Below, piece after piece: positions 2,329 through 13,222 of a stretch of DNA of 64,000 nucleotides. Below the pieces are notes generated by a model that saw only the letters and a list, made by a program, of their open reading frames with translations, was not told the origin of the DNA and made no database searches. A program made the position numbers and the translations under genes. Positions within the stretch are counted from its first letter, which is position 1, and each line of letters begins with the position of its first letter. Source of the stretch: Escherichia coli (lineage in GTDB: Bacteria; Pseudomonadota; Gammaproteobacteria; Enterobacterales; Enterobacteriaceae); assembly GCF_041248615.1 (NCBI RefSeq), contig NZ_CP158426.1. One strand, 5' to 3'.

Positions 2329-5341
<3,013 letters not shown>

Positions 5342-5342
5342 A

Positions 5343-5400
5343 CACTGCCGGATGCGGCGCGAGCGCCTTATTCGGCCTACGGGTCGTGCATCCGACAACA
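5343..5400. repeat. REP (palindromic unit) element between rhaA and rhaD
   Basis: gccggatgcggcgcgagcgccttattcggcctac is a REP-type GC-rich imperfect palindrome. Confidence 0.6.
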
Positions 5401-5423: not shown

Positions 5424-6254
5424 ATGCAAAACATTACCCAGTCCTGGTTTGTCCAGGGAATGATCAAAGCCACCACCGATGCCTGGCTGAAAGGCTGGGA
5501 CGAGCGCAACGGCGGCAACCTGACGCTGCGCCTGGATGACGCCGATATCGCGCTTTATCACGACAACTTCCACCCACAACCGCGCTATATTCCGCTCAGC
5601 CAACCCATGCCTTTACTGGCAAATACGCCGTTTATTGTCACCGGCTCCGGCAAATTCTTCCGTAACGTCCAGCTCGATCCTGCAGCTAACTTAGGCGTCG
5701 TAAAAGTCGACAGCGATGGCGCGGGCTACCATATTCTCTGGGGGTTAACCAACGAAGCCGTCCCCACTTCCGAACTTCCGGCTCACTTCCTTTCCCACTG
5801 CGAGCGCATTAAAGCCACCAACGGTAAAGATCGCGTGATCATGCACTGCCATGCCACCAACCTGATCGCCCTTACCTACGTACTGGAAAACGACACCGCG
5901 GTCTTCACTCGCCAGCTTTGGGAAGGCAGCACCGAGTGTCTGGTAGTGTTCCCGGATGGCGTCGGCATTTTGCCGTGGATGGTGCCCGGCACGGACGAAA
6001 TCGGCCAGGCGACCGCACAGGAAATGCAAAAACATTCGCTGGTGTTGTGGCCCTTCCACGGCGTCTTCGGCAGCGGTCCGACACTGGATGAAACATTCGG
6101 TTTAATCGACACCGCAGAAAAATCAGCACAAGTATTAGTGAAGGTTTATTCGATGGGCGGCATGAAACAGACCATCAGTCGTGAAGAGCTGATAGCGCTC
6201 GGCCAGCGTTTCGGCGTTACACCACTCGCCAGTGCGCTGGCGCTGGCGCTGTAA
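5424..6254 (+). CDS. rhaD: Rhamnulose-1-phosphate aldolase
   Basis: Starts [24 protein letters not shown]...; class II aldolase; track ORF extended upstream over the REP. C-terminus ends ASALALAL encoded by three GCGCTG units. Confidence 0.93.
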
Positions 6255-6263
6255 GGAGCAAAC

Positions 6264-6578
6264 ATGATCCGCAAAGCCTTTGTCATGCAGGTTAACCCCG
6301 ACGCCCACGAAGAGTATCAGCGTCGGCATAATCCAATCTGGCCGGAACTGGAAGCAGTGTTGAAATCTCACGGTGCGCATAACTACACCATTTACCTCGA
6401 CAAAGCGCGTAATCTGCTGTTTGCCACGGTAGAGATTGAATCTGAAGAACGGTGGAATGCGGTAGCCAGTACTGATGTTTGCCAACGTTGGTGGAAATAT
6501 ATGACCGACGTTATGCCAGCTAACCCGGATAACAGCCCAGTCAGTAGCGAGCTGCAAGAAGTGTTTTACCTGCCTTAA
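6264..6578 (+). CDS. rhaM: L-rhamnose mutarotase
   Basis: 104 aa [30 protein letters not shown]...; follows rhaD. Confidence 0.92.
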
Positions 6579-6618
6579 TGAGTTGCGGTGCCGGAAAATA
6601 TCCAGCACCGCGACTTCA

Positions 6619-8013
6619 TCAGAAGAAGTATTTAAAGCGAACGCGTGCGCCGTAACGGTCATCAGTATCATCACCGTGTTTTTTATCACCGTCGCTATCC
6701 AGAATGGAGTAATACGTCCCGAGGTAAATATTAAAGTTCTCCATATCCATCACATTAGCGAACTGATAAGACGCATGAATGGTGTGAATGGTGTACGTCC
6801 CTTCATCATCAATCCAGCAGTCGTTATCACAAACTACACCGCTGAATTCATCAATCTTATTGTGCGCGTAGATATAACCCAGCTCGAAACGTTTCCACAG
6901 CGCGTTAATCCCGGCAGTGAAATCTTTCTCATTATTAGCATCTAAATAGGCGGTATTAAGATTAACCACGACACCATTTTCCGGATCCGTTTTCAGGCCA
7001 TTCCAGGTCATGCTCATACCATAGCCGGTACGATCGGACTGATCGACAAAATTACCCTTGCTATCGGTATAACCATAAGCATTATTTACCACGTTCGCTT
7101 CCATCGCTGCGGAAACGGTGAATTCTTCCGTCGGCGACCAGGCAATTACCGGACGCAGATAAGCAACATTTTTCTGCTGCTCCATATCGCGTCCATGATA
7201 ATTACCGTCATTATATAAAGATGTTCCGTCTTCAAGTAACGTGTTTAATTCAAAATACCAGTTATCAAGTTGTTTGCTGACGAGGAAATTACCGCCAGCG
7301 TTAGAGCGCCCGCGGCCCTCTTTCATCATATAGATATAACCGCTGCCATCGTCATAAAGATCGTTCGCAGTATTACCGGAATGTTCAACAAAGGTATCCT
7401 GATTCAGCGGGAACATATCATAGGCTTCGAAACGACCGACTTTGACCTTCCAGTCATTCTCTTTGCCAAAGAAGAATACCGCATCATCGATATTTACTGA
7501 ACCGTGCATGTCCCCCAGCGGTTGTGCGGAGAACCCGGCGAAATAACCATTATCCAGTTTTCGCATACCATCAAAACCTAACAGAATACGACCATTGAGA
7601 TTCCACTGTTCATTAGTGGGATCGCTATTCACATCAGCGTTGGTCATTGCCAGCAAGCCATGATTACTTTCCGCATCCATATTAAATTCTACGTCGCCGT
7701 AGATTTTTAAATCGCCATAACCTGAGAGCAAAAGATTAGGTGAGGTGGCATTTTTCTTTGCAGATTCCGCCGTTGCCTGTCCATTTACCGGCGTATTGCC
7801 CTGAGCGGCCTTAATTTCGCGGATCTCAGCGGCTTGTTGTGTCTGCAACTGTTTAACCTGGCTCTCTGCTTTTGCCGCCCGCATTTCTGCCGCTTCCAGG
7901 CGTTCTTCCAGCAATGCCATGCGTTGTTCCAGCGTTAAATGCTGTGTTTTTGCCATACCGGTACTACATGCCAATAATAAACCGATGGCTAAAGATAATG
8001 TCGATTTTTTCAT
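6619..8013 (-). CDS. Outer-membrane carbohydrate-selective porin (OprB-like), with N-terminal coiled-coil region
   Basis: 464 aa; signal peptide MKKSTLSLAIGLLLACSTGMA; heptad-like charged stretch (LEQRMALLEERLEAAEMRAAKAESQVKQLQTQQAAEIREIKAAQ) reminiscent of the ScrY N-terminal extension; aromatic/Gly/Asn/Asp-rich beta-barrel body ending in the C-terminal Phe signature ...RFKYFF. Family call is from pattern only. Occupies the position where K-12 has the frv operon (from memory). Confidence 0.7.
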   Translation of the reverse strand: MKKSTLSLAIGLLLACSTGMAKTQHLTLEQRMALLEERLEAAEMRAAKAESQVKQLQTQQAAEIREIKAAQGNTPVNGQATAESAKKNATSPNLLLSGYGDLKIYGDVEFNMDAESNHGLLAMTNADVNSDPTNEQWNLNGRILLGFDGMRKLDNGYFAGFSAQPLGDMHGSVNIDDAVFFFGKENDWKVKVGRFEAYDMFPLNQDTFVEHSGNTANDLYDDGSGYIYMMKEGRGRSNAGGNFLVSKQLDNWYFELNTLLEDGTSLYNDGNYHGRDMEQQKNVAYLRPVIAWSPTEEFTVSAAMEANVVNNAYGYTDSKGNFVDQSDRTGYGMSMTWNGLKTDPENGVVVNLNTAYLDANNEKDFTAGINALWKRFELGYIYAHNKIDEFSGVVCDNDCWIDDEGTYTIHTIHASYQFANVMDMENFNIYLGTYYSILDSDGDKKHGDDTDDRYGARVRFKYFF

Positions 8014-8366
8014 TATTTACGTTCCCTGAAATAAAGGAGGCCCTACGCTTTCCAAAAGGAATACGTATATAGAGAAATATAAAGTGTGCACTTTCGAATT
8101 TTTAATCCAACTTCAGCAGGCCGATGGATAGTATCCCGCCGCATAATATGAGTAAATCCGCTGATTTCCTGGAACGTGAGGAATATAACAATAGTGCCGT
8201 TTTTAACCAAATATCGTAAAAAATATTAGATATAATTCACGCTGACTCATAAGCCACAAATATAAATAACGCTTAAACAAATTATCTGAGACATTTAAAC
8301 ATTCACAACATCATTAAATAATGATACTTTATTCACAAAATTTATCCTTCACTCTGCTTTATATTG

Positions 8367-9095
8367 TCACGACTTCGTGACATATCCGCGCTCATCACAA
8401 ACCCGCCCCGCGATTACAATTGACTGAAATATTTCATCGACCATTTCGTTGTACTCGCGTAACGCTCGCGGAAATGAGTCGTCGACCATCCAGCTTGTGT
8501 TTGCATCCTGAAGTTGCTCTTTATCCCAGTCAGAGTACGGAACTTTATCTCTGACGCGGCGAACATATTTTTTAGCCTCGAGTTGATACTGGTCTGCCGA
8601 ATTAATGAACGAGAAATTCATACCGCCTTTATCCGCTTCTTTGGCCTGCGCCACCAGCGTTTCCAGTTCAGAGACTTTCTTCATTGCCGCATCAACATCA
8701 AACTTCTCTTGCGATATCAGGTTATTAATTTGTTTCGCTGAAATCATGACTGCCAGAGAATAGTAGTGGAATGTTTTCCCTTCTCTTTCTTCAATATTTT
8801 TCAGTTCCGCAAGCTGACGCTTATCATTAATTTCCTGGATCGCCGCATGATAAGATTCGGCTACAGGTTCAAAGGCGTCCAGATTTTTTAAGAATGTCTG
8901 GTGCAGCGTTTTCCCTTTCGCAAACGCATCGTCTTTATAATTTTCCTGGGTGTAATATTTATCCATTTCGTTAATGGTATTACCCAACGCCACGGCAGCA
9001 TCAATATAACTCACCGCCACGCCATCAATAGGTTGCAGCGCAGGCGTTAACGCTACTACACGCGTTTTGTTTATAAATAAAATAATAAAATTCAC
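8367..9095 (-). CDS. yiiG: YiiG-like hypothetical protein (DUF3829-like), possibly truncated or divergent
   Basis: 242-aa ORF immediately downstream of fdhD, where K-12 has yiiG. Starts at a GTG abutting the fdhD terminator hairpin, with no signal peptide. I recall K-12 YiiG as longer, so this may be a fragment or a shorter allele. Confidence 0.5.
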   Translation of the reverse strand: MNFIILFINKTRVVALTPALQPIDGVAVSYIDAAVALGNTINEMDKYYTQENYKDDAFAKGKTLHQTFLKNLDAFEPVAESYHAAIQEINDKRQLAELKNIEEREGKTFHYYSLAVMISAKQINNLISQEKFDVDAAMKKVSELETLVAQAKEADKGGMNFSFINSADQYQLEAKKYVRRVRDKVPYSDWDKEQLQDANTSWMVDDSFPRALREYNEMVDEIFQSIVIAGRVCDERGYVTKS

Positions 9096-9099
9096 GAAA

Positions 9100-9140
9100 T
9101 GAATAAGTCCTGCAATTTAATATATATCGCAGGACTTATT
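9100..9140 (-). terminator. Hairpin terminator downstream of fdhD
   Basis: Inverted repeat aataagtcctgc ... gcaggacttatt in AT-rich context immediately after the fdhD stop. Confidence 0.55.
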
Positions 9141-9144
9141 TTAA

Positions 9145-9978
9145 TTAATTGCTCAAACGCTGTGGATGAGTATAAACCGTTGCCCGACCCGGTTTACAAA
9201 AGCCCACCAGCGTCAAATTACAGCGTTCAGCCACTTCTACAGCAAGTGTGGTCGCGGCAGACACCGCAAACAAAATCTCTACGCCACACATCGCCGACTT
9301 TTGCACCATTTCATAGCTGGCACGGCTGGAAACCAGCACCGCACCTTGCTGCCAGCTTTCCCCTTCTTGTGACCGGCGGCCTAACAGTTTGTCCAGCGCC
9401 ACATGGCGACCCACGTCTTCATGCCCGCCGACCAGTTCGCCAGATGGCAACATCCATGCAGCGGCGTGAGTACAACCGGTCAGTTGCCCCACTGGCTGGA
9501 AATCATTAAGATGACGTAATGCATCATCCAGTTTGTTGAGATCAAACGTCTGGGTGAACGGCAGCGGCTGCACCGGTTTTCCGATATCATTAAGTTGCTC
9601 CACGCCGCACACGCCGCAGCCTGTACGCCCGGCCAGCGCCCGGCGACGTTCCTTCAACCCCATAAAGCGGCGGCTGGAAAGCTCAATTTGAACTTCAAGA
9701 CCATTACAGGAAGGAACGACATCCATGCCGAAGATATCGCGCGGACTTTCTATTATCCCCTCGGAAAGCGAAAAACCGAGCGCAAAGTACTCAAGGTCTT
9801 TGGGCGACGCCATCATCACCACATGCGAAATGCCGTTGTAGACCAGCGCAACGGGAACTTCTTCCGCGACCTCATCTAACCGTGGGTGTTGTAAATCATC
9901 ACGCCGCCATAACTCAATTTGACGAACACCTGTGATATTTGTCACATTTTCGATTTCTTTTTGCTGTGTTTTTTTCAC
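9145..9978 (-). CDS. fdhD: Formate dehydrogenase accessory sulfurtransferase FdhD
   Basis: 277 aa [28 protein letters not shown]...; divergent from fdoG. Confidence 0.93.
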
Positions 9979-10171: not shown

Positions 10172-13100
10172 ATGCAGGTCAGCAGAAGGCAGTTCTTTAA
10201 GATCTGCGCTGGCGGTATGGCAGGCACCACGGCAGCGGCACTGGGTTTTGCACCCAGCGTAGCACTCGCGGAAACCCGGCAGTATAAACTGCTGCGCACC
10301 CGCGAAACCCGTAATACCTGCACCTATTGTTCCGTAGGCTGTGGGCTGTTGATGTACAGCCTCGGTGACGGAGCAAAAAACGCCAAAGCATCTATCTTCC
10401 ATATCGAAGGCGATCCGGATCACCCGGTCAACCGCGGTGCACTTTGTCCGAAAGGCGCTGGCCTGGTGGATTTCATCCACTCCGAAAGCCGTCTGAAGTT
10501 TCCGGAATACCGTGCGCCAGGTTCTGATAAATGGCAGCAAATCAGTTGGGAAGAGGCGTTTGATCGCATCGCCAAACTGATGAAAGAAGACCGCGATGCT
10601 AACTACATTGCGCAAAACGCCGAAGGCGTGACTGTTAACCGCTGGCTCTCCACCGGGATGCTGTGTGCTTCCGCGTCGAGTAACGAAACCGGCTATTTAA
10701 CGCAAAAATTCTCCCGCGCGCTGGGTATGCTCGCGGTCGACAACCAGGCGCGTGTCTGACACGGACCAACGGTAGCAAGTCTTGCTCCAACATTTGGTCG
10801 CGGTGCGATGACCAACCACTGGGTCGACATCAAGAACGCCAACCTCGTCGTGGTGATGGGCGGTAACGCCGCTGAAGCTCACCCGGTCGGGTTCCGCTGG
10901 GCGATGGAAGCCAAAATTCACAACGGCGCGAAGCTGATTGTGATCGATCCTCGCTTTACGCGTACGGCGGCGGTGGCTGACTACTATGCCCCTATTCGTT
11001 CCGGTACTGACATTGCTTTCCTGTCAGGCGTATTGCTGTACCTGCTGAACAATGAAAAATTCAACCGCGAATACACCGAAGCCTATACCAACGCCAGCCT
11101 TATCGTGCGTGAGGATTACGGCTTTGAAGATGGCCTGTTCACCGGCTACGACGCGGAAAAACGCAAGTACGATAAATCCTCCTGGACTTACGAACTGGAC
11201 GAAAACGGCTTCGCCAAACGCGATACCACGCTGCAACATCCGCGCTGCGTGTGGAACTTGCTGAAACAGCACGTTTCCCGCTACACGCCAGATGTGGTTG
11301 AAAACATCTGTGGTACGCCAAAAGACGCGTTCCTGAAAGTCTGCGAATACATCGCCGAAACCAGTGCTCACGATAAAACTGCCTCGTTCCTGTATGCCCT
11401 CGGCTGGACGCAACACTCTGTTGGTGCGCAAAACATTCGTACGATGGCGATGATCCAGCTGCTGCTCGGCAATATGGGGATGGCAGGCGGCGGCGTTAAC
11501 GCCCTGCGCGGTCACTCCAATATTCAGGGGCTGACGGACCTGGGGCTGCTGTCGCAGAGCCTGCCGGGTTACATGACGTTGCCGAGCGAGAAGCAGACCG
11601 ATCTGCAAACCTACCTTACAGCCAACACGCCAAAACCGCTGCTGGAAGGTCAGGTAAACTACTGGGGCAACTACCCGAAATTCTTCGTCTCCATGATGAA
11701 GGCCTTCTTTGGTGATAAAGCGACGGCGGAAAATAGCTGGGGCTTTGACTGGTTGCCGAAGTGGGATAAAGGCTACGACGTCCTGCAATACTTCGAGATG
11801 ATGAAAGAAGGCAAGGTCAATGGCTATATCTGCCAGGGCTTTAACCCTGTTGCCTCATTCCCGAACAAAAACAAAGTGATCGGTTGTCTGTCGAAACTGA
11901 AGTTCCTCGTCACCATCGACCCGCTGAACACTGAAACCTCTAACTTCTGGCAGAACCACGGTGAGCTGAACGAAGTTGACTCGTCGAAGATCCAGACCGA
12001 AGTGTTCCGTCTGCCATCGACCTGCTTCGCGGAAGAGAACGGTTCTATCGTTAACTCCGGTCGCTGGTTGCAGTGGCACTGGAAAGGTGCGGACGCCCCG
12101 GGGATTGCGCTGACTGATGGCGAGATCCTCTCCGGTATCTTCCTGCGCTTGCGCAAGATGTATGCCGAACAGGGTGGCGCGAACCCGGACCAGGTGCTGA
12201 ACATGACCTGGAACTACGCCATCCCGCATGAGCCGAAGTCGGAAGAAGTGGCGATGGAGAGCAACGGTAAGGCGCTGGCCGATATTACCGATCCGGCAAC
12301 CGGGGCGGTTATCGTCAAGAAAGGCCAACAACTTAGCTCGTTCGCCCAACTGCGCGATGACGGTACCACCTCCTGTGGCTGCTGGATTTTCGCCGGTAGC
12401 TGGACGCCAGAGGGCAACCAGATGGCACGCCGTGATAACGCCGATCCGTCTGGCCTCGGTAACACGCTGGGCTGGGCATGGGCATGGCCGCTTAACCGCC
12501 GCATTCTGTATAACCGCGCCTCCGCAGATCCGCAGGGTAACCCGTGGGATCCGAAGCGTCAGTTGCTGAAATGGGACGGCACCAAATGGACCGGCTGGGA
12601 TATTCCGGACTACAGCGCAGCACCTCCGGGCAGTGGCGTCGGGCCGTTTATCATGCAGCAGGAAGGCATGGGACGTCTGTTTGCCCTTGATAAGATGGCG
12701 GAAGGTCCGTTCCCGGAACACTACGAGCCGTTTGAAACGCCGCTGGGAACTAACCCGCTGCATCCAAACGTTATCTCGAACCCGGCTGCGCGTATCTTTA
12801 AAGACGACGCCGAAGCGTTGGGTAAAGCCGATAAGTTCCCGTATGTCGGAACCACCTATCGTCTGACCGAGCACTTCCACTACTGGACCAAACACGCGCT
12901 GTTGAACGCGATTTTGCAACCAGAGCAGTTTGTGGAAATCGGGGAGTCGCTGGCGAATAAACTTGGCATTGCCCAGGGCGATACCGTGAAAGTCTCCTCC
13001 AACCGTGGCTATATCAAAGCCAAAGCGGTGGTGACCAAACGTATTCGCACGCTGAAAGCGAACGGCAAAGATATCGATACCATCGGTATTCCGATTCACT

Positions 13101-13222
13101 GGGGCTATGAAGGCGTAGCTAAAAAAGGCTTTATTGCCAATACGTTAACGCCATTCGTTGGTGATGCGAACACGCAGACGCCGGAGTTTAAGTCCTTCCT
13201 TGTGAATGTGGAAAAGGTGTAA
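10172..13222 (+). CDS. fdoG: Formate dehydrogenase-O major (alpha) subunit, selenocysteine-containing
   Basis: Track ORFs 10172..10759 and 10808..13222 are in the same frame, separated by one in-frame TGA at 10757-10759 (context ...ARV-TGA-HGPT...). Twin-arginine signal MQVSRRQFFK; Cys cluster CTYCSVGCG; molybdopterin oxidoreductase body. Total 1016 codons. Confidence 0.93.
10757..10800 (+). other. Selenocysteine UGA codon and downstream SECIS stem-loop in fdoG
   Basis: In-frame TGA followed by cacggaccaacggtagcaagtcttgctccaacatttggtcg, which can fold into a hairpin directly 3' of the UGA as expected for a bacterial SECIS. Confidence 0.75.

Follow-up and report, generated by a model that had tools for sequence, protein, structure and literature searches.

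A RafY-family glycoporin gene between rhaM and fdhD in an Escherichia coli chromosome, and the probable loss of the adjoining frv operon and yiiG by deletion

The interval between rhaM and fdhD was analysed in a 64,000-nucleotide stretch of an E. coli chromosome (contig NZ_CP158426.1), referred to here as the window. Judged from its sequence, the 464-codon gene in this interval is the chromosomal RafY-family glycoporin gene of E. coli (rafY2), which is already annotated. We consider it very probable that the gene has long occupied this site and that the frv operon and yiiG beside it were lost by two deletions. The arrangement is ordinary and already known, being found in about one fifth of complete E. 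coli genomes. A first-pass annotation of the same DNA had described an OprB-like porin that replaced the frv operon of K-12, and both parts of that description are revised below.

The porin gene and its predicted product

The porin gene (6619-8013, minus strand) is an intact ORF whose product begins with MKKSTLSLAIGLLLACSTGMA, followed after the putative cleavage site by KTQ, and ends in RFKYFF. The signal peptide, charged helix and RFKYFF end that the first-pass annotation had read in this 464-aa ORF are all present, while its OprB-like label did not hold. The protein belongs to PF16966 (Porin_8; E 3.7e-154), with residues 104-464 aligned on model positions 1-372 of 372, and the same profile is matched by all 29 aligned homologues. 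The OprB family (PF04966) was missing from the Pfam matches even at E <= 10, and an NCBIfam scan of the porin and the neighbouring yiiG-like ORF matched no family. RefSeq calls the product 'carbohydrate porin' (100% identical record NZ_LT599825.1), and rafY2 is the name given to the O157:H7 copy in PMC4809568. The label of the gene should read RafY-family rather than OprB-like, which is a useful correction.

The comparison with plasmid RafY (pRSD2; PF16966; TCDB 1.B.15) was made through the porin of plasmid pMB9245_1, which lies in a LacI, GH36, MFS, GH32 and porin cluster, that is, a rafR-rafA-rafB-rafD-porin operon. The two proteins share 79% identity over 450 aa, have the same length (464 aa) and the same Pfam family throughout, and the layout of signal peptide, coiled coil, barrel and RFKYFF end is also that of RafY. 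Unlike plasmid RafY, the window porin is chromosomal, occupies a fixed site beside rhaM and has no adjoining rafRABD in E. coli. An orphan rafY without rafABD is also mentioned in a study of chicken-gut E. coli (PMC12987596).

The signal peptide (residues 1-21, MKKSTLSLAIGLLLACSTGMA; 7951-8013, minus strand) reads as a classical one, with MKK, a hydrophobic core and GMA before K22, where cleavage is predicted. The boundary A/K(T/S) is kept in the alignment with 28 homologues. The Cys of the signal peptide varies among homologues, which makes a lipobox improbable. At the other end of the protein a C-terminal aromatic beta-signal is present, and its final F does not vary among the 29 aligned sequences. 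AlphaFold2 predicts a single long helix at residues 28-70, with pLDDT of about 90 for residues 31-60. This corresponds to a putative periplasmic coiled-coil extension of ScrY type (residues 27-70, LEQRMALLEERLEAAEMRAAKAE...; 7804-7935, minus strand). Sugarporin_N (PF11471) matches the porin itself at E 0.06, and reaches E <= 1e-3 in 12 of the 29 homologues and E <= 0.1 in 28 of them (best value 6.9e-07). Residues 101-464 (6622-7713, minus strand) are predicted to form a 16-stranded beta-barrel closing on the C-terminal Phe. A long, strongly conserved loop at residues 195-240 joins strands 5 and 6 and is predicted to face inward. The model used was built with 57 diverse sequences; an earlier run with 29 close homologues gave a pLDDT of 50 and was discarded. 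Sequence searches against PDB chains with the porin, its N-terminal 95 aa and the 57-sequence profile returned nothing meaningful, and we know of no solved structure for the RafY family.

The model thus indicates a general-porin barrel of 16 strands fused to a ScrY-type coiled coil. The number of strands equals that predicted for RafY by TCDB, as given in PMC4827864. ScrY and LamB resemble the porin in their link to oligosaccharide use, and the N-terminal periplasmic coiled coil corresponds to the Sugarporin_N of ScrY; the porin differs from both in having no 18-stranded, LamB-homologous barrel. OprB is likewise a 16-stranded outer-membrane barrel of similar size tied to sugar uptake, and Foldseek aligned the model with Pseudomonas putida OprB at E 1.6e-11, although OprB is not its best structural neighbour. 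Another 16-stranded porin, DcaP of Acinetobacter baumannii (6eus), shares 12% identity with the porin and no homology at the sequence level. The substrates of DcaP are dicarboxylates rather than sugars.

Deletion junctions and the yiiG remnant

On the left the interval is bounded by rhaM (6264-6578, plus strand; TIGR02625 equivalog, E 2.1e-57; RefSeq), which encodes L-rhamnose mutarotase, is the last gene of rhaBADM and converges with the porin gene. The right boundary of the variable interval is fdhD (9145-9978, minus strand; TIGR00129 equivalog, E 6.4e-102; RefSeq), encoding the formate dehydrogenase sulfurtransferase. An imperfect hairpin (GCGGTGCCGG-N7-CCAGCACCGC; 6585-6611) lies in the 40-bp gap between rhaM and the porin gene and is possibly a bidirectional terminator; it has a T-run on neither side and was not reported by the terminator scan. 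A second hairpin, read from the sequence as the fdhD terminator (AAGTCCTGC...GCAGGACTT; 9105-9137, minus strand), immediately precedes the GTG start of the yiiG-like ORF.

The order in MG1655 is rhaM-frvA-frvB-frvX-frvR-yiiG-fdhD with no porin, as the first-pass annotation had stated. Other strains carry both the porin and the frv genes, and the window is collinear with one such O157-like locus (L004) except for gaps of 4,791 bp and 473 bp. At the first junction (8434/8435) positions 3527-8317 of L004 are absent, with a 4-bp microhomology (TCAT); the lost segment comprises frvA, frvB, frvX and frvR together with the final codons of yiiG, stop codon included. At the second (9049-9056) positions 8938-9410 are absent at an 8-bp direct repeat (AACGCCAC), both copies of which are visible in the intact locus, and codons 1-137 of yiiG, its start codon and 56 bp upstream have gone. 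The promoter/operator region of frvA persists as a remnant (8336-8434, plus strand) that abuts the 3' end of what is left of yiiG. It is 96% identical to positions 3428-3526 of L004, which lie immediately upstream of frvA and are conserved upstream of a frvA-like gene in Enterobacter. The first junction is contiguous in 1,164 of 5,426 complete E. coli genomes. Strain AR_0089 has both junctions as in the window, and Nissle 1917, a phylogroup B2 strain, shows the same arrangement of porin, yiiG remnant and no frv. A literature search on frvA, frvB and frvX gave nothing bearing on the rhaM-fdhD locus.

The yiiG-like ORF (8367-9095, minus strand) has 242 codons and starts at a GTG (9095) located 49 bp from the fdhD stop codon, right after the terminator hairpin. 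This agrees with the first-pass annotation, which had also noted that the ORF lacks a signal peptide and had suspected truncation. In BLASTP, residues 13-221 correspond to residues 138-346 of K-12 YiiG at 95% identity, and the alignment places the gaps at both ends. The true remnant therefore covers codons 138-346 of 351 (8435-9053, minus strand). Of the further residues in the ORF, 12 at the N-terminus are encoded by intergenic DNA, and a 21-aa tail, translated from the frvA promoter region, stands in place of the last 5 aa of YiiG. Full-length YiiG is a DUF3829 lipoprotein with the signal MKRNLLSSAIIVAIMSLGLTGC...; the remnant lacks this signal with the rest of the N-terminal 137 aa, as well as the start codon and promoter. 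RefSeq marks it as a pseudogene, 'missing N-terminus'. On this alignment, yiiG in the window is a pseudogene truncated at both ends, and treating it as such is a further useful correction. Its codons carry residues of O157 type and not of K-12 type.

The ORF might instead encode a new, shortened cytoplasmic protein derived from YiiG and still expressed. No stop codon interrupts its frame in the window or in AR_0089 or Nissle 1917, and a further 135-bp deletion inside the remnant of the latter two strains, from which the window is free, is in frame. The dN/dS of the remnant against intact alleles is 0.12-0.27, below 1, but most of the differences predate the deletions, so these values cannot separate neutral decay from constraint. 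Between AR_0089 and Nissle 1917 the remnant has accumulated 3 nonsynonymous and 0 synonymous changes. With a GTG straight after the fdhD terminator, no Shine-Dalgarno sequence or promoter, the lipoprotein signal and 137 N-terminal residues gone, a tail made from promoter DNA and the RefSeq pseudogene flag, we regard such a protein as extremely improbable.

History of the rhaM-fdhD interval

The porin gene was found in 2,559 complete E. coli genomes; subtraction of the 1,164 without frv leaves about 1,400 with both porin and frv. The two lie side by side in the O157-like strain, in BL21(DE3) and in Escherichia sp. MOD1-EC7003, and the arrangement also occurs in Trabulsiella. Orthologous porins (at least 67% identity) occupy the same site by rhaM in Citrobacter, Kluyvera, Klebsiella, Raoultella and others. 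The 80 loci listed, of 202 found, represent 34 enterobacterial species besides E. coli; they include none from E. albertii, E. fergusonii or Salmonella. Of these 34 species-level loci, 23 have a convergent rhaM no more than 400 bp from the porin gene, and the count rises to 30 for a distance of up to 10 kb. Since rhaM lies downstream of the porin gene in 30 of the 34 species listed, the porin looks ancestral at this site, and by parsimony its absence from K-12 is most likely due to loss and not to an original lack of the gene. The 167-bp rhaM-frvA segment of K-12, which stands in place of the 1,778-bp porin segment, contains no remnant of the latter, with only chance 8-10-mers in common.

The order in ancestral Escherichia was then probably rhaM, the porin gene divergent from frvABXR, yiiG and fdhD, the porin being an old resident of this interval in Enterobacteriaceae. 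In the lineage of the window, two old microhomology-mediated deletions would have struck this arrangement. The larger would have taken away frvABXR with the extreme 3' end of yiiG. The other would have deprived yiiG of its promoter, its start codon and its first 137 codons with the lipoprotein signal, leaving an orphan but functional porin gene and a dead yiiG remnant. K-12 would have kept frv and yiiG instead, the porin segment most likely being lost. The first-pass annotation was right that the locus differs from that of K-12, frv being absent and yiiG truncated, but replacement does not describe how the difference arose.

An insertion by horizontal transfer, in which a foreign OprB-like porin cassette replaced the frv operon, would account for several observations. 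K-12 has frvABXR without the porin and the window has the porin without frv; the porin and its upstream DNA are richer in AT than the flanks; the K-12 and porin-type segments beside rhaM show no detectable similarity; and close paralogues with about 86% nucleotide identity are found on plasmids with raf genes. However, the coexistence of porin and frv in so many complete genomes and the derivation of the window from that arrangement by two deletions speak against a swap, as does the presence of orthologues at this position in over 20 further species. The synonymous divergence between the chromosomal porin and plasmid rafY is high (about 0.9), and the OprB match that the cassette would call for is missing from Pfam. 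This origin is very unlikely, and residence of the porin at the site before the two deletions is the reading we retain. For the porin, the K-12 map probably represents a derived state and not the reference state. Beyond such bookkeeping the importance of the locus is slight, the gene being annotated and named, and the arrangement being present also in the probiotic Nissle 1917.

Upstream region, selection and possible role of the porin

The upstream region of the porin gene (8014-8434, minus strand) is the former divergent intergenic region between porin and frvA. It is collinear with positions 3068-3526 of L004 save for a 28-bp indel and is preserved up to a point 18 bp ahead of the former start codon of frvA. 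The AT-rich DNA noticed by the first-pass annotation was borne out, 8014-8366 having 34-37% GC whereas the flanking genes have about 55%. A CRP-like box (TGTTATATTCCTCACG; 8175-8190, minus strand) is located 177 nt upstream of the porin ATG, with invariant columns in a cross-genus alignment (A3). Downstream of it is a candidate promoter (-35 TTTACT at about 8150-8155, -10 TACTAT at about 8128-8133, minus strand). Among 33 upstream regions compared (that of the window and those of 32 species-level loci), 29 contain the motif TGT[TG]A-N6-TCAC[GA] at a distance of 177-242 nt from the ATG, independently of which gene lies next upstream. Consensus and conservation make it probable that the porin gene is transcribed from a cAMP-CRP-dependent promoter of its own within the retained AT-rich DNA. 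A generic promoter and terminator scan of 6500-9250 gave sites no more numerous than in shuffled sequence. A putative small hairpin in the 5' leader (CGTATTCC-TTTT-GGAAAGCG; 8046-8065, minus strand) appears in single-sequence folds of the window, O157-like and three Citrobacter leaders, one of the latter with a compensatory change, and Kluyvera has an equivalent. RNAalifold found no consensus structure in the unrefined leader alignment.

The porin would be exported by its Sec signal peptide and then inserted in the outer membrane, with the predicted ScrY-type stalk projecting into the periplasm. By analogy with plasmid RafY, from which its channel properties are extrapolated, it may act as a passive, wide diffusion channel that speeds the entry of di- and trisaccharides (raffinose, sucrose, maltose), and inner-membrane permeases would then take up the sugars. 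Both PMC4827864 and PMC12987596 cite the original work on plasmid RafY (Ulmke 1997, Andersen 1998). Our literature search returned no experimental work on the chromosomal copy.

Against other E. coli alleles, including frv-less lineages, the dN/dS of the porin gene is 0.04-0.05 at synonymous divergence of up to 0.25, and by this measure the gene is under strong purifying selection. The first-pass annotation had named disruption of the ORF in related strains as evidence against its reading. Each of the five E. coli genomes inspected has an intact ORF, and the sole length change seen is exactly one coiled-coil heptad, in frame, in Nissle 1917. Shortened products do occur in some E. coli (a 342-aa cluster with 496 members, and variants of 435 aa and 367 aa), so the gene appears dispensable in some lineages. 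Such truncations, the lack of partner genes in the window and the absence of the gene from about half of E. coli genomes would fit a decaying relic whose raf or frv partners were lost and which, now without a role, drifts toward the pseudogene state as in K-12. A mouse study, in which sera of Klebsiella-infected animals scarcely recognised RafY, points the same way (PMC13410258). The low dN/dS, the intact and in-frame ORFs and the conserved promoter-region motif and ribosome-binding region argue against decay, and the adjoining yiiG remnant, in contrast, gathers more deletions. We consider a relic unlikely. That the porin is strongly conserved though all neighbouring sugar genes were lost or exchanged argues that it is used.

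A more speculative suggestion, which we hold only as an outside chance, is that orphan RafY2 is a CRP-controlled, general-purpose oligosaccharide gate under strong selection of its own and not a leftover of a raf cluster, and that its tail-to-tail position with rhaM reflects a functional tie. Such a tie may involve the entry of plant oligosaccharides containing rhamnose or alpha-galactosides, or a common regulation in which the conserved upstream box and the leader hairpin take part. If so, the loss of the porin from K-12 would have hidden a normal part of the gut carbohydrate physiology of E. coli.

The first-pass annotation had left the substrate open, pointing to the lack of a kinase, PTS or hydrolase partner. 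Indeed, the rhaM-fdhD interval contains no such gene and no rafR, rafA, rafB or rafD, nor does the window encode an alpha-galactosidase, an invertase or a dedicated permease. Related genera are more informative: in 4 of the 34 loci listed (Klebsiella, Raoultella and Enterobacter) rafR, rafA and rafB immediately precede the orthologue on its own strand, and raf genes are within 10 kb of it in 9. The raf-gene neighbourhood is a feature of context and does not define the RafY family.

Gene content of the rhaM-fdhD interval

The ORF listing and family scans placed rhaB, rhaA and rhaD upstream of rhaM in window order, followed by rhaM (6264-6578, plus strand), a 464-aa porin ORF (6619-8013, minus strand) and fdhD (9145-9978, minus strand), with fdoG next. 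A 242-aa yiiG-like ORF (8367-9095, minus strand), initiated by GTG, was also listed; 353 bp of low-GC DNA (34-37% GC) separate it from the porin. Positions 6200-9200 are 100% identical to E. coli NRZ14408 (NZ_LT599825.1), for which RefSeq lists a 'carbohydrate porin' and then a 'YiiG family protein, pseudogene, missing N-terminus'. This locus feature is already annotated and common. In K-12 MG1655 the order is rhaM-frvA-frvB-frvX-frvR-yiiG-fdhD, and the porin is absent. Each element seen in the first-pass annotation is therefore real, and it correctly placed frvA-frvB-frvX-frvR-yiiG at this position in K-12.

Because of an in-frame TGA (10757-10759), fdoG shows up as two separate mechanical ORFs, one at 10172-10759 and one at 10808-13222. 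The surrounding residues, ARV-U-HGPTVASLAP, mark this TGA as the selenocysteine codon of the formate dehydrogenase alpha subunit. In the identical record the gene is named fdnG/formate dehydrogenase-N by RefSeq, despite its fdoGHI position.

Family and structure of the porin

The porin, first labelled OprB-like, belongs to the RafY family. Its residues 104-464 align over the full length of Pfam's Porin_8 ('RafY glycoporin') profile (E 3.7e-154), and neither OprB nor LamB was among the Pfam matches. A plasmid homologue, also 464 aa long and 79% identical, lies in a cluster of LacI-repressor, GH36 alpha-galactosidase, MFS permease, GH32 invertase and porin genes, which corresponds to the classical rafR-A-B-D-Y layout of raf clusters. 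The chromosomal gene was named rafY2 in an O157:H7 paper, where rafRABD was noted as absent (PMC4809568), and a 2026 study found the full rafABD operon in only 23 of 45 rafY-positive isolates (PMC12987596). The protein is most likely a RafY-type channel for the passive diffusion of oligosaccharides, with putative pore properties and substrates.

The porin begins with a standard signal peptide; a lipobox at Cys 16 is unlikely, as this residue is not conserved among homologues. There follows a conserved LEQRL..LE.RL.AAE.RA..AE segment, matching the Sugarporin_N domain known from ScrY weakly in the window porin (E 0.06) and clearly family-wide (E <= 1e-3 in 12 of 29 homologues, best 6.9e-07). No PDB chain matched the porin by sequence, profile search included. 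A first AlphaFold2 model was poor; a second, built with 57 diverse family members (pLDDT 82, pTM 0.72), gave the fold class: residues 28-70 are modelled as a helix, and the strands number 16. Residues 195-240, where conservation across the family peaks, form a long loop between modelled strands 5 and 6, a predicted position that matches the constriction loop of classical porins. The Nissle 1917 allele (4001-5374 of its locus, L016) encodes 457 aa and lacks codons 31-37 (window equivalent 7903-7923). The missing stretch is exactly one heptad of the coiled coil at the N-terminus, which leaves the register intact.

Synteny of the porin and deletions at the frv operon

The locus was at first read as a replacement of frv by the porin. 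Alignment with an O157-like locus (L004, rhaM-porin-frvABXR-yiiG-fdhD) and synteny across species show instead that frv was deleted beside a resident porin. The window is collinear with L004 apart from two gaps. One deletion, of 4,791 bp, starts 18 bp upstream of the frvA ATG and stops just within the 3' end of yiiG, with TCAT microhomology at the junction. The other, of 473 bp, took out yiiG codons 1-137 plus the preceding 56 bp, with a copy of AACGCCAC on either side.

The suspected truncation of yiiG was borne out, and at both ends: residues 13-221 of the 242-aa ORF correspond to K-12 YiiG 138-346 (95% identity), the only part matched. Intergenic DNA supplies the ORF's first 12 aa, and the frvA promoter region its last 21. 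The dN/dS of the remnant (8435-9053, minus strand) is 0.12-0.27 and uninformative. Its structure argues for a pseudogene, because it has no start context and no signal, lies directly behind the fdhD terminator and shows further decay elsewhere. Both junctions are also found in strain AR_0089, which additionally carries a 135-bp deletion that is in frame and flanked by a repeat (GTTTTCCCTT), and Nissle 1917 has the window's arrangement and the same 135-bp deletion. The remnant carries O157-type residues in the window and K-12-type residues in AR_0089 (L009) and Nissle 1917; these different residue types within a shared arrangement suggest intra-locus recombination that postdates the deletions. 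The frvA promoter/operator remnant (8336-8434, plus strand) outlived the deletion and now points antisense into the yiiG remnant and on towards the end of fdhD.

Orthologues in Citrobacter and Kluyvera (81-85% identity) occupy the same site, tail to tail with rhaM. The species scan took one genome per bacterial species, and 80 of the 202 loci found were listed and annotated by tblastn with 17 reference proteins. Neighbours were counted at the 34 loci among these listed matches whose porin is 67% or more identical to that of the window. Convergent rhaM lies within 400 bp downstream at 23 of the 34, and rhaM lies within 10 kb downstream at 30. The nearest upstream panel gene is a same-strand HTH-cupin regulator at 16 loci and a divergent frvA at 5 (Escherichia, Trabulsiella, Enterobacter); same-strand rafR-rafA-rafB are nearest at 4, and raf genes lie within 10 kb at 9. 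Distant RafY-family paralogues (57-62% identity) among the matches listed are directly downstream of MFS permease and GH32 hydrolase genes. These neighbourhoods indicate that the porin has long been resident between fdhD and rhaM. Its far-side neighbours are sugar-utilisation modules that have been repeatedly exchanged, and the porin plus frv arrangement is older than E. coli.

The distant paralogue loci (L078, L079, L081, L083, L088, L092, L094, L097 and L098, from Raoultella, Klebsiella, Rahnella, Erwinia and Cedecea) form a second conserved porin-with-sugar-operon context, in which the permease is about 40% identical to RafB and the GH32 protein about 55% to RafD. One record titled 'Chryseobacterium sp. 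18061' (L043, CACSKA010000012.1) holds an fdhD-frv-azlC-HTH-porin...rhaM locus typical of enterobacteria, in which the porin is 71% identical, and is probably mislabelled or contaminated.

Selection, upstream region and distribution in E. coli

Selection on the porin is evident between E. coli alleles, with dN/dS of 0.04-0.05 at synonymous divergence up to 0.25, in comparisons that took in pairs with and between frv-less lineages. Nissle 1917 has the single length variant seen. The upstream region is kept in the window. It contains a CRP-like box, TGTTA-N6-TCACG (8175-8190, minus strand), and a plausible candidate -35/-10 pair. Of 33 orthologous upstream regions (the window and 32 species-level loci, handles L021-L059 and L074), 29 have the box, at 177-242 nt from the ATG. 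The porin is probably catabolite-controlled, putatively through CRP. The box is kept whether the upstream neighbour is frvA, the HTH-cupin regulator or rafB; it is absent from four Klebsiella/Raoultella loci, in three of which rafB is the nearest upstream gene. A small putative regulatory hairpin in the 5' leader (8046-8065, minus strand) lies some 30 nt upstream of the start codon. Citrobacter and Kluyvera leaders are predicted to form it too, and one Citrobacter locus, L020, shows a compensatory pair change (CGTCTTCC/GGAAGACG); the hairpin was not recovered by RNAalifold.

Among 5,426 complete E. coli genomes, 2,559 have a full-length porin gene, 1,164 the contiguous frv-less junction, and 1,166 a single match covering window positions 6200-9200. 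By subtraction, porin and frv occur together in about 1,400, including BL21(DE3), and about half of the genomes are K-12-like, with frv and no porin. K-12, which most likely lost the porin, has 167 unrelated bp in place of the 1,778-bp porin segment. The rha locus shows another polymorphism: in some E. coli, namely UTAK-22 (L003, 1444-2592) and E69 (L022), a gene for a fucO-like lactaldehyde reductase separates rhaD from rhaM. It is also present in Citrobacter and Kluyvera and absent from the window, K-12 and the O157-like strain. Between rhaA and rhaD, multiple BLAST matches indicate several tandem copies of a repeat of about 137 bp in K-12 (L007) and one in L004.
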